The notes under the pieces were generated by a model, which saw nothing but the letters and a program-made list of their open reading frames with translations, ran no database searches and had not been told where the DNA came from. Position numbers and translations under genes: made by a program. This document shows positions 7,052-40,223 of a DNA stretch of 64,000 nt, piece by piece. Source of the stretch: a virus (Duplodnaviria; Caudoviricetes); IMG/VR virus record IMGVR_UViG_3300005841_000939. The stretch is one strand, 5' to 3'. Position 1 is the stretch's first letter. Every line of letters starts with the position of its first letter.

Positions 7052-7819
7052 TTAGATACCTTTCTTTCCTACATGAATAACCATACCTTCATTAACATCT
7101 CCTGGGAGAATAATTTCTTGACGTGCTCTTGCACGACGCAAAACATTGTTTTGAGGTTCCATGACTTTACCTCCCATTATAAGAGATTCCATCATCTTAG
7201 TAAATGCTGGAACATAAAGTAAAGTCTTATCTGGACTAACCTTAGTTTCCATAATATAATGATCTTCAAAGTTTTCTGCCAAATTATTTGCAGAATGTTT
7301 TTCCACATGCCAAATCTTGGGAGCATCGCCACTACGCTTTGCTACTTTACCAATTTCTTCATCAAATTGTTCTCTAATGGCATAGACGGGGAAATGCCCC
7401 TTTGGCAAATGATTGATAGATTCTTGTTGAACCCAACGCTTTAATTGAGGATAATCTTCCATCAAATCTAAAGCTTCAGTCAAGTGTTTAACCTTATTTT
7501 CATTAAGATAATCAACTATATGTTTTAGGAAAGTTTCTTTTAAAGAAAGACGATATTCACCCTGCATGAATTCGCGAGGATCTTCTTCAATAATTTCCTC
7601 ATCTTTACCTGTTTTTGACTTATTACGCTTATCACCTTGTCGTTCTTTACGTTTACGTATTTTATCTCGTAAACGAGTCAACCCAGGAGTTTCTGTTACT
7701 CCTGGGTTGAATCCGGTTGTACCACCAAAGCCTTCTAAAAAGACTTCTTGAAGTCGTTCCTTAAGAGTTTTGGGCTTCTGCTCCATTGATAGCTCCAAGA
7801 ACACCCTTTTGGGTGTCAT
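7052..7819 (-). CDS. hypothetical protein
   Basis: 255-aa ORF. Confidence 0.6.
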   Translation of the reverse strand: MTPKRVFLELSMEQKPKTLKERLQEVFLEGFGGTTGFNPGVTETPGLTRLRDKIRKRKERQGDKRNKSKTGKDEEIIEEDPREFMQGEYRLSLKETFLKHIVDYLNENKVKHLTEALDLMEDYPQLKRWVQQESINHLPKGHFPVYAIREQFDEEIGKVAKRSGDAPKIWHVEKHSANNLAENFEDHYIMETKVSPDKTLLYVPAFTKMMESLIMGGKVMEPQNNVLRRARARQEIILPGDVNEGMVIHVGKKGI

Positions 7820-8252
7820 CAGAACTATTTATAGCATTTCCTGGCGAAAACTCTTGTTCGATCACATCCTTGAAGTAATCACGGAACTTTTCGTAACCAA
7901 TGGTGTTCATGATTTCTTCAGGAGCCATGTGATCCAAATAGAATGGCTTTACCGTTGCCCATGGCAGATGATCCAAAAGAAGCAATTCGTCGTAACATTC
8001 AGTCAAAGTTTCAATACCAATAACCTTGCACAGGAATTTCTTGGTGTTGGTGTCATTGATGAATTCGTAAATCAATTCCGAAGTCATGGCCTGCTTGATG
8101 AATTCAATAGCAGAGCATTCAATCTTGATGTACTTGAAGCCATCCTTGTCAAATGTATTCAAGATTTCTGCTGGAAGATGGATACGCATATTGCCTTCCT
8201 TCTTCTCATCAGTTGTTTTGGTGTCTTGTTTGGTATCTGATGTATCAGACAT
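7761..8252 (-). CDS. hypothetical protein
   Basis: ORF-track frame; start moved to the ATG at 8252 (MSDTS), which removes the overlap with recQ. Confidence 0.55.
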   Translation of the reverse strand: MSDTSDTKQDTKTTDEKKEGNMRIHLPAEILNTFDKDGFKYIKIECSAIEFIKQAMTSELIYEFINDTNTKKFLCKVIGIETLTECYDELLLLDHLPWATVKPFYLDHMAPEEIMNTIGYEKFRDYFKDVIEQEFSPGNAINSSDDTQKGVLGAINGAEAQNS

Positions 8253-36617: not shown

Positions 36618-36708
36618 TGGCTGGTAGTGAGGGACTCGAACCCCCATGATGTTTTTCACATCGGCTCGTTAACAGCGGGCTGCCTTACCAAATTCGGCAC
36701 AACTACCA
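36618..36708 (-). tRNA. tRNA with Asn anticodon (GTT) and a class II long variable arm
   Basis: loop CTGTTAA; variable hairpin GATGT-GAAAA-ACATC; G73; encoded CCA. Confidence 0.75.
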
Positions 36709-36720
36709 ATGAAAATAAAA

Positions 36721-36806
36721 TGGAGTCTGTAGCAGGATTTGAACCTGCGTGTGGTTTCCCAAACGGTTTTGCAAACCGTCGCTTTCAGCCGCTCAGCCAT
36801 ACAGAC
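36721..36806 (-). tRNA. tRNA-Cys(GCA) with a long variable arm
   Basis: ACGGT-TTGCAAA-ACCGT arm, U73, variable hairpin TGG-GAAA-CCA. Confidence 0.85.
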
Positions 36807-37133: not shown

Positions 37134-37223
37134 TGGCGGATAGAGAGGGATTTGAACCCCCGGAACGTTTTCACGCTCATCGGTTTAGTAAACCGGCGCA
37201 TTCGGCCACTCTGCCATCTATCC
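37134..37223 (-). tRNA. tRNA-Ser(ACT), rare A34 anticodon
   Basis: Ser-type body nearly identical to 40811-40900; loop TTACTAA. Confidence 0.8.
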
Positions 37224-37393: not shown

Positions 37394-37603
37394 TTAAAAA
37401 TCTTTCTCTTCAAGCAAATTTGTGCAACGACCTTCTGCAACTGCTCTATTTATGTCATCAAATTCTTTTTTGATTTCATCAAGCAATGCTTTCTTTTCTT
37501 CTTCTGATATATCAGAAGAATTTAACCTTTCTTCGGTTTTCTCATCCAAATGAATGCAACTTGAAATCATTCCTTCTGATAACCATTCCTGTGGAACTAT
37601 CAT
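37394..37603 (-). CDS. small hypothetical protein
   Basis: 69-aa ORF, ATGA coupling. Confidence 0.5.
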   Translation of the reverse strand: MIVPQEWLSEGMISSCIHLDEKTEERLNSSDISEEEKKALLDEIKKEFDDINRAVAEGRCTNLLEEKDF

Positions 37604-38205
37604 TTGTCTTCTTTCTCTAAAAGGTTGTTAAAAATGATTTTGCAAATGGCCTTGCCACGACGGTCAATATGCTTCCACTTGATCTTAAAAGAATCCGAAT
37701 CAATACCACCAAACATATTGGCATTTGAATGGATTTCAGCAAGACCTGCAATTAGAAGTGTTATTGCTTCTTTGCGTTTGCAAAATTCTTCAATTTGTTC
37801 TGCTTTGAGACGATGAATATCCATATCCAACCTAATGAGATTGGCAATTTGTTCATCACCTCCATGATCTAACCAAATTTGTGCAGAAATTTCCGCATGA
37901 TTTGGAAAATGAATGCGACCTTCGCTATCAGTTTCCTGACAGAATGGTTTGCCGCAATCATGAAAAAGGGCATACTCAAGAATTGTTTCGGTGTCTAACA
38001 GATTCCCTAAAATCTGTGACTTGTATAATTGAAACCATTCAGGGAGTCGCCAATTTGGCAACACCTATGTTTCACCTTTTATAAACTGAATCAACTCTTG
38101 AAGATGATTCTTGACTGATTCTCCGTGTTGGAGAATCGTTTGATGTTGATTTTGATTACAACCCTTCATCTTTTCGATGAGGATCTACTGAAAGTCCTGC
38201 TTCAT
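37600..38205 (-). CDS. HD-like phosphohydrolase interrupted by two in-frame TAG codons (readthrough gene or pseudogene)
   Basis: AAGGA RBS + ATG at 38205; TAG at 38185-38187 and 38065-38067; TILQHG...FHDCGKP...HFPNHA; ends at TGA. Confidence 0.6.
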
Positions 38206-38380
38206 GATGTTCCTTAAATGGTTGATGCGAGAGCGAGCGATGTTGCTATGCGTGAAAGTTCGTCATTTCTTTTACTATCAATTTGACCATTGTTCCATCC
38301 AATTTCTCGAATGTGAAATGCCAACGCCAAAGAATTTTCAAATTCTTCAACTTCAATTAATTTTTCTCCAACTCTAATCA

Positions 38381-38689
38381 TCATTTCAATCTTTCTGATT
38401 TTTGAATTGCGAGTTGTTTTGACGATTTAATTTTATTATACAAGTCATCAGGATGGAAATTTGGTTCCCATTCTTTCCCTTGTGTAATATGAAATTTTTC
38501 TGCCATCATGTGATGGGTTGGGCAAAGAGAAATACCATTCTCTTTGACATAGCCACCGTTTGGCATTTCATTTCGATCAGTTATGTGATGCGCATCAAGA
38601 TTTTCTTTAATGTCACAAAACAAACATTTGCCACCGTCTCGCTTGAAGACTGCGTTGCGAAATGCTGAACGAATTTCCTTCTTGTTCAT
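38381..38689 (-). CDS. HNH endonuclease
   Basis: VFKRDGGKCLFC...LDAHHI...NGISLCPTHH. Confidence 0.82.
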   Translation of the reverse strand: MNKKEIRSAFRNAVFKRDGGKCLFCDIKENLDAHHITDRNEMPNGGYVKENGISLCPTHHMMAEKFHITQGKEWEPNFHPDDLYNKIKSSKQLAIQKSERLK

Positions 38690-40146: not shown

Positions 40147-40223
40147 AGGCCCGACTGTCAAGATTTGAACTTGAATTTTCCAGCCATGACGGCCGGACGT
40201 TCTTTGCATTGAACTACAATCAG
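40147..40223 (-). ncRNA. tRNA-like RNA with a 9-nt anticodon loop (CCGTCATGG), paralogue of 40057-40131
   Basis: same D and T arm sequences, covarying acceptor stem; ends GCCT. Confidence 0.55.

Follow-up and report, generated by a model that had tools for sequence, protein, structure and literature searches.

What is the status of a gene that would encode a complete HD-domain protein, were it not interrupted by two in-frame TAG codons? This question is raised by positions 37600 to 38205 of a 64,000-nucleotide stretch of the IMG/VR virus record IMGVR_UViG_3300005841_000939 (Duplodnaviria; Caudoviricetes), hereafter called the window. A first-pass annotation, made from the letters of the window without database searches, proposed that amber read-through may gate the gene and named a pseudogene as the alternative. 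The comparative data reported here favour gating over the pseudogene and support that proposal. We give a probability of about 0.78 to the reading that the gene encodes an active HD enzyme of the phrog_14850 jumbo-phage family, and that its translation depends on amber suppression, as judged by comparison of sequences.

Two amber codons and a family pattern

The HD gene runs from 38205 to 37600 as one 201-codon frame on the minus strand, a point left unstated by the first-pass annotation. A plus-strand reading of 37600-38205 was rejected, as it is full of stops. Translation of the window agrees with the two in-frame TAGs and the lack of any other internal stop noted earlier. The protein begins MKQDFQ-TAG-ILIEKMKGC and ends EKEDK, and the only in-frame stops are the TAGs at codons 7 and 47 and the terminal TGA at 37602-37600. 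The parts of the gene are as follows.

37600-38205, minus strand: predicted HD-domain phosphohydrolase gene, 201 codons, two TAG codons and a TGA stop (translation, Pfam, PHROG, AlphaFold2)
38211-38215, minus strand: Shine-Dalgarno sequence AAGGA, located 5 nt 5' of the ATG at 38205-38203 as first described, and overlapping the TAA of an upstream open reading frame (ORF) of 56 amino acids (aa)
38203-38205, minus strand: ATG, proposed start, codon 1 (sequence; an ATG is also present in 71 of 71 relatives with a start-proximal TAG)
38185-38187, minus strand: first TAG, codon 7, next base A; the family-conserved start-proximal amber codon
38167-38169, minus strand: conserved Met13 (codon 13), invariant in 119 homologues (alignment)
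38125-38127, minus strand: His27 of the invariant QHG motif, first HD metal ligand, between the two TAGs (alignments)
38065-38067, minus strand: second TAG, codon 47, next base G; lineage-specific (translation, alignment, model)
38062-38064, minus strand: GTG abutting the second TAG, the table 11 start of a 154-aa ORF, with AAGGTGA 7 nt upstream
37813-37962, minus strand: the other HD motifs, all intact and all invariant alignment columns, namely H82-D83 (37962-37957), H99...H103 (HFPNH, 37911-37897) and D127...H131 (DMDxH, 37827-37813)

The protein has 973 relatives in the databases at E <=0.001, the best of them at most 62% identical, and a homologue is present in 29 phage records, all of large phages. 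We fetched 156 loci with homologues from phage isolates, IMG/VR and metagenomes; these are cited by L numbers where they must be told apart. Reading upstream from the conserved Met, the first in-frame stop is TAG in 108 of 141 loci, TGA in 20 and TAA in 13. After removal of duplicates, 71 of 116 genes have a TAG no more than 15 codons (2-15) upstream of this Met. Each of these 71 TAGs is preceded in frame by an ATG at a distance of 0-11 codons, most commonly one, as in M-L-TAG-N-D-L-I-D-A-M. A Shine-Dalgarno match of at least 4 nt precedes the upstream ATG in 50 of the 71 and the conserved Met in 14 (p 1.6e-9). The window gene fits this pattern, with AAGGA 5 nt upstream, an ATG, five codons, TAG followed by A, five codons and Met13. 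The HD genes of the phages XacN1 and RsoM2USA also fit: ahead of the annotated starts they read M-K-TAG... and M-K-S-TAG..., respectively.

The pattern is particular to the HD genes. An arrangement of ATG, stop and ATG is formed with TAG in 62 of 123 HD genes, with TAA in one and with TGA in two. In a control of 810 neighbouring genes the same arrangement has TAA 21 times, TAG 14 times and TGA 17 times (62/123 vs 14/810, Fisher p 3.5e-48). The base after the start-proximal TAG is A in 47 genes, G in 16, C in 8 and T in none; in E. coli, amber suppression is helped by a 3' purine, A above all.

The stretch between TAG and Met varies as coding sequence does, with entropy lowest at the second codon position, higher at the first and highest at the third. 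The short peptide that follows the TAG (...L-I-x-D-M) is also part of the protein in TAG-free homologues. Close relatives without the TAG have Gln in its place: P0087 and P0117 begin MSYLQN..., where L162 and L091 have MSYL-TAG-N.... The aligned starts are MSYLQNCLIRQM and MSYLQNRLINDM, compared with MSYL-TAG-NHLIKQM and MSYL-TAG-NRLISDM.

In-frame stops inside the HD domain were found in six lineages, and they are always TAG, never TAA or TGA. These lineages are the window gene (codon 47), L047, L056/L061, L062/L068, L124, and the Yersinia phage fHe-Yen9-04 together with the Erwinia phage Kaldavass. The second TAG of the window gene lies past helix 1 and ahead of the W-R-L-P-x-W motif, in a variable surface loop (model residues 31-43, pLDDT 91) and in an alignment column that is a gap in 102 of 119 homologues. 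The internal TAG of L062/L068 is three residues from this site in the same loop, which also holds the TAG of fHe-Yen9-04 and Kaldavass (...L-D-S-G-TAG-G-D-S...). The start-proximal TAG is lacking in L062/68, L124 and the Yersinia/Erwinia group, so in these lineages the gate seems to have been relocated, not lost.

In fHe-Yen9-04 (L206 1474-2040) and Kaldavass (L207 1474-2040) the HD homologue is annotated as two to three small ORFs, and the TAG is at locus position 1612. GAP32-like phages match the HD protein only from residue 55 or 63 onward, and may be the same split-gene case. The gene upstream of HD in L124 (2761-3141, plus strand) starts M-L-TAG-I-N-T...; this could be another gated gene, the third, or a coincidental match.

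The HD enzyme and its PTH2 partner

The product of the 201-codon frame matches Pfam HD (PF01966) over residues 70-134 with 24.7 bits, against a cut-off of 22, and phrog_14850 over residues 10-194 with E 6.9e-61 (profile positions 87-269 of 270). H27, H82-D83, H99, H103, D127 and H131 are invariant in alignments of 60-119 homologues. H27, the His of LQHG, is invariant in 119 homologues and had rightly been taken for the first HD metal ligand. H27 has one TAG on either side, and therefore the 154-aa ORF, which lacks H27 and helix 1, cannot be the functional product. The earlier view of that ORF as truncated is thus upheld.

An AlphaFold2 model of residues 13-201 has a mean pLDDT of 95. Its best structural match is 3WFO, the A-adding tRNA nucleotidyltransferase of Aquifex aeolicus (Z 12.2, rmsd 3.1 Å, 149 residues, 20% identity), of which the HD-like body, chain residues 259-445, is the region matched (VIA-align). 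When the family profile was compared with the PDB sequences, 3WFO was likewise the sole match below E 0.001 (E 1.7e-4, around HDxGKP). The next structural matches, the HD domain of GlyRS beta, GppA, PhnZ and PgpH, have Z 9-10, values that indicate no more than a common fold. A Foldseek search of the PDB had no match at E <=0.001.

The HD protein resembles the class II tRNA nucleotidyltransferase 3WFO in the fold of the HD-like body, and it has the full H, HD, H, H, D ligand set of binuclear HD hydrolases. Unlike the nucleotidyltransferase, it has no head or neck domain and is a stand-alone protein of 19-23 kDa. A CCA- or A-adding enzyme was rejected as its identity: only the body region aligns, the proteins have 189-201 residues, and no nucleotidyltransferase domain is found by Pfam. 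Based on ligands and model, we read the protein as a binuclear-metal HD hydrolase. By analogy, its substrate is likely to be tRNA-related.

A possible link to translation also comes from the genes that accompany HD. Six relatives, among them the cultured Tenacibaculum phage pT24, have a fusion in which a domain of PTH2 (peptidyl-tRNA hydrolase) precedes the HD domain, and the fusions start M-T-TAG, M-S-TAG, M-K-TAG and similar. At most 19 residues separate the TAG from the Pfam match to PTH2, which begins at profile position 2-5. Between the TAG and the conserved Met, three fusions contain no ATG at all; the remaining three have their first ATG 30, 43 and 108 codons past the TAG, inside the PTH2 domain. 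Two of the six offer only a TTG or GTG, 11-12 codons past the TAG. The annotated start of the pT24 gene is 43 codons past the TAG and removes the first 24 residues of the PTH2 match. Since no ATG after the TAG preserves the domain, an intact PTH2 domain can be made only from the upstream ATG through the TAG. The equivalent of Met13, which is the annotated start in relatives, is internal in the fusions and still conserved.

XacN1 has the reverse fusion, HD-PTH2. In the closest relatives PTH2 is a separate gene directly 3' of HD, and it reads M-C-L-TAG-V-K-E-G-D-K-L-Y-V-I-T-R.... TAG is the first upstream in-frame stop in 52 of 59 distinct PTH2-like genes; this TAG almost always stands 0-10 codons ahead of the conserved motif, and the ATG is usually 1-3 codons before the TAG. 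The PTH2-like gene of RsoM2USA starts M-L-TAG and is found in an unannotated gap between RsoM2USA_93 and _92 (L001 ~1545-1912). It was apparently left unannotated on account of its amber codon.

Two further observations concern PTH2 loci. In the Salmonella phage Arash (L208), which has the HD homologue and a tRNA(CUA), the annotation shows a 50-aa 'peptidyl-tRNA hydrolase' fragment immediately upstream. The closest relative, L088, encodes a full-length IF3 homologue (7411-8052, plus strand; IF3_N E 2e-32, IF3_C E 3.5e-26) about 3 kb downstream of HD-PTH2-tRNA(CUA), between the suppressor tRNAs and a tRNA-Arg(CCU).

Suppressor tRNAs and genomic setting

ARAGORN found 216 tRNAs within 3-4 kb of 127 distinct HD loci, all on the HD strand. 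The anticodon CUA is by far the commonest near HD (57 of the 216, median distance 1.06 kb). A tRNA(CUA) is present in 45 loci; of the 79 loci flanked by at least 3 kb on both sides, 34 have one. Where no tRNA(CUA) is nearby, a further-off copy was found in three of five whole records by a pattern scan, whose pattern may miss others. RsoM2USA, XacN1, pT24, ME3 and Arash are isolates with both the HD gene and a tRNA(CUA). The tRNA(CUA) of Arash is annotated as tRNA-Phe (L208 2500-2574) and lies 0.46 kb downstream of the HD homologue.

We propose the following course of events in the phage of the window. Ribosomes would start at ATG 38205 behind AAGGA and meet UAG at codons 7 and 47. At both a tRNA(CUA) would outcompete the host release factor 1 (RF1), giving the 201-residue enzyme, with Gln as the probable residue inserted; without suppression a hexapeptide would be released. 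The first UAG would be the family-wide gate; the second, in a surface loop, would be an additional gate specific to this lineage. Provided that read-through at one is independent of the other, the yield would follow roughly the square of suppressor activity. As to purpose, we favour a clean-up pair, HD and PTH2, acting on tRNA ends or peptidyl-tRNA and made in proportion to suppressor activity, so that the gate would work as a sensor. We favour this circuit because the gate is shared by HD, with its fold like that of a tRNA enzyme, and PTH2, and because fusions of the two occur in both orders. The alternative is a timing lock, which would hold back enzymes that harm translation if made too early. 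Read-through in this phage, the insertion of Gln and the purpose are all three what we infer. Extended to the family, the proposal is that HD and PTH2 are dedicated, conserved clients of the amber-suppressor tRNAs of standard-code jumbo phages, in a three-part circuit of tRNA(CUA), PTH2 and HD. We consider this slightly better than an even bet.

Other tRNA-related elements were observed at the family's loci. In the terminal repeat of XacN1 (L191, record ~36.0-37.6 kb) two tRNA(CUA) genes stand in tandem about 1 kb before a phage tmRNA gene. The tag peptide of this tmRNA is ANANTFDYALAA, and the tmRNA is a further ribosome-rescue element beside the suppressors. In L031, L034, L039 and L043, ARAGORN places a tRNA with the anticodon AAU about 0.65 kb upstream of the HD gene. 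This anticodon is not normal in bacteria, and the AAU tRNAs may be mis-registered or non-canonical.

The HD gene of the window lies within a large tRNA array and belongs to a packed unit of four ORFs: an HNH endonuclease, the 56-aa ORF, the HD gene and a 69-aa ORF. The features that surround it are as follows.

38214-38689, minus strand: upstream operon partners, the HNH endonuclease (38689-38381) and the 56-aa ORF (38384-38214), with an ATGA overlap between them
37600-37603, minus strand: ATGA overlap between the TGA of the HD gene and the ATG that opens the 69-aa ORF downstream
37394-37603, minus strand: downstream 69-aa ORF, with a tRNA-Trp(CCA) 7 nt further (ORF list, tRNA scan)

The overlap of the HD gene with the 69-aa ORF suggests translational coupling. 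The 69-aa ORF has no PHROG match and no significant Pfam match.

The virus record that was read has 262,529 bases, 35.9% G+C and 34 tRNA genes. The identical 154-aa product was found on six contigs from JGI and ENA/Logan assemblies, which possibly have reads in common. Some of these contigs are about 379.5 kb long, and the 262,529-base record is therefore a fragment.

Some tRNAs in the array are unusual. One at 40148-40223 (minus strand) has the anticodon UCA, of the opal-suppressor type. Its anticodon loop as given by ARAGORN, C-G-UCA-U-G, is odd, with no U33 and no purine 37, and a shifted register would give CAU. A tRNA(UCA) occurs in L011/L064 as well, where it precedes the HD gene by about 0.5 kb. 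Three minus-strand tRNAs have a long variable arm (class II shape), at 36618-36708 (GUU, Asn), 36721-36806 (GCA, Cys, U73) and 37134-37223 (ACU). For those with GUU and GCA, the class II shape would be an unusual pairing of identity and anticodon if real.

Competing explanations, known systems and significance

Several observations weigh against read-through. The TAG is absent from about 30% of family members. No tRNA(CUA) gene, which the first-pass annotation had proposed looking for, was found in the 262,529-base fragment by ARAGORN with default or relaxed settings, and no PTH2 was found there by PF01981 or tblastn. Across the family, a TAG in the gene is weakly associated with a tRNA(CUA) within 4 kb (29/71 vs 14/45), and some TAG-free members, L103 and ME3, are still beside one. 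The nearby tRNA(CUA) genes belong to several sequence types that are not related to one another, and different phages may therefore insert different amino acids; the residue is judged from the alternation of Gln and TAG among relatives. Homologues were compared for Gln at both TAG positions, as the first-pass annotation had suggested. Gln occupies the first in the TAG-free close relatives; the second does not align with Gln, and most relatives show a gap or a variable residue there. A GTG with a plausible Shine-Dalgarno sequence adjoins the second TAG on its 3' side, and a restart product is thus possible.

This last point leads to the explanation that survives best next to read-through, which we still regard as unlikely. 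Here the first six codons are a leader ORF, translation reinitiates at Met13, and the second TAG splits the gene into products of 34 and 154 residues that might reassemble or act alone. Met13 is invariant and its equivalent is the annotated start in relatives, and the AAGGTGA 7 nt upstream of the GTG would serve the restart. Met13 as the true start was rejected, however, because its equivalent is invariant even where it is internal in the fusions, whose PTH2 domain moreover needs read-through. The segment from TAG to Met13 is conserved as protein, varies at third positions and belongs to the protein of TAG-free relatives. Shine-Dalgarno sequences before Met13 are rare, the TAG is often followed by a codon other than a start codon (AAC, ACG, AGT), and the 154-residue product is without the invariant His27 and helix 1.

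A pseudogene is less probable again. It would be a dispensable HD gene with two independent nonsense mutations (e.g. CAG>TAG), the TAGs being unread. The missing suppressor tRNA in the record, the non-conserved loop position of the second TAG and the relatives without any TAG would all agree with decay. Against it, the first TAG is conserved in the family and not in neighbouring genes, and the internal stops are TAG in all six lineages. Further signs of decay, for which the gene was inspected, are missing: there is no frameshift, and the catalytic residues and the gene overlaps, including ATGA, are kept. A relative showing the ancestral codon at the second TAG was found neither by megablast against phages nor by an exact-pattern scan of IMG/VR.

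Recoding of TAG to Gln (code 15) over the genome or a block of it, with HD as one of many genes, is very improbable. TAG is indeed rare as a stop. Among 58 window ORFs of at least 100 aa, 42 end in TAA, 13 in TGA and three in TAG, and the latter are precisely the ends listed by the first-pass annotation (5977, 28545 with TAA at once after, and 46796). In the whole record, ORFs of at least 100 aa end in TAA 159 times, TGA 77 times and TAG 16 times (16/252), and relatives do encode tRNA(CUA). However, when TAG was taken as sense, ORF coverage rose only from 79.1% to 80.5%, a smaller gain than with TGA or TAA. The record gives no sign of code 15, under which the first-pass annotation had proposed scanning it. 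Ten TAG-bridged frames and six genes of the form ATG..TAG..ATG elsewhere in the record showed no homology across the TAG. A helix-turn-helix gene at record positions 226376-226843 was rejected as a TAG-bridged gene, as it is two adjacent genes. Around the relatives' genes, with HD and PTH2 excluded, frames bridged over a single stop are evenly spread (TAA 35, TGA 37, TAG 34), which indicates that the relatives are not recoded around the HD gene either. In XacN1 its authors found nothing behind 18 amber stops (PMC5852040). Over the 262,529 bases read, the phage uses the standard code and is not recoded to code 15.

A sequencing or assembly error at one or both TAGs, conceivable in a genome assembled from a metagenome, is equally improbable, since the 154-aa product, which requires the second stop, is on six contigs from two kinds of source and the first TAG matches a family-wide pattern. 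Even jointly, these four explanations are unlikely, and we return to amber read-through as the preferred reading.

The proposed read-through can be compared with known systems. In the code-15 phages (crAss-like, Lak and other gut phages) TAG is read as Gln (bioRxiv 10.1101/2021.08.26.457843; PMC9523058). As in our proposal, a phage tRNA(CUA) there reads UAG in a standard-code host, Gln is the likely residue and TAG is depleted as a stop. Read-through is also thought to time gene production, as we propose for HD. The in-frame TAGs of the code-15 phages are spread over tens to hundreds of genes, most of them for late structural and lysis functions, whereas the HD system concerns one gene (HD, plus PTH2 in relatives), usually with a single TAG right after the start, and the remaining genome is standard.

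Amber-suppressor tRNAs have been reported in XacN1, where reading through 18 amber stops gave no target (PMC5852040), and in RsoM2USA, for which many targets were merely guessed (PMC8504454). Both are jumbo phages with an HD homologue and a tRNA(CUA), the same type of tRNA. Their HD genes were overlooked as candidate clients because the piece upstream of the TAG has only two to three codons.

The prfB gene for release factor 2 has an in-frame UGA at codon 26 and is autoregulated via a +1 frameshift, by which it senses its own product. The HD gene would share with prfB an early in-frame stop that senses termination versus alternative decoding and sets the yield of a translation protein. The two differ in mechanism: prfB uses a +1 frameshift and senses itself, whereas plain suppressor read-through is proposed for HD. 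In the bar minigenes of lambda, peptidyl-tRNA drop-off occurs and is relieved by Pth. The unsuppressed 5' ends of the HD and PTH2 genes are likewise mini-ORFs, of 1 to 12 codons, and the partner is a peptidyl-tRNA hydrolase. By this analogy drop-off at the HD and PTH2 mini-ORFs is a lead, not a finding.

A full-text literature search, with most subscription journals outside its scope, gave no description of amber-gated HD or PTH2 genes. Suppression as a mechanism is known; its start-proximal, family-conserved use on a single gene and the identity of the clients appear to be new. The HD family and PTH2 are concrete, conserved candidate targets for the suppressor tRNAs that are common in standard-code jumbo phages. 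Annotation misses such genes, either by starting them at an internal Met, by splitting them into two to three ORFs or by omitting them.

If the proposal is true, these phages would naturally employ an orthogonal suppressor tRNA on a single gene, as a gate or sensor of translation. The HD/PTH2 pair would be made only during, and in proportion to, suppression of UAG in competition with RF1. Suppression would then be tied to peptidyl-tRNA hydrolysis, and a large family of uncharacterised proteins would gain a functional lead. Such use would be intermediate between normal decoding and the recoding of whole genomes in gut phages; it may represent the first stage of the published model of recoding.

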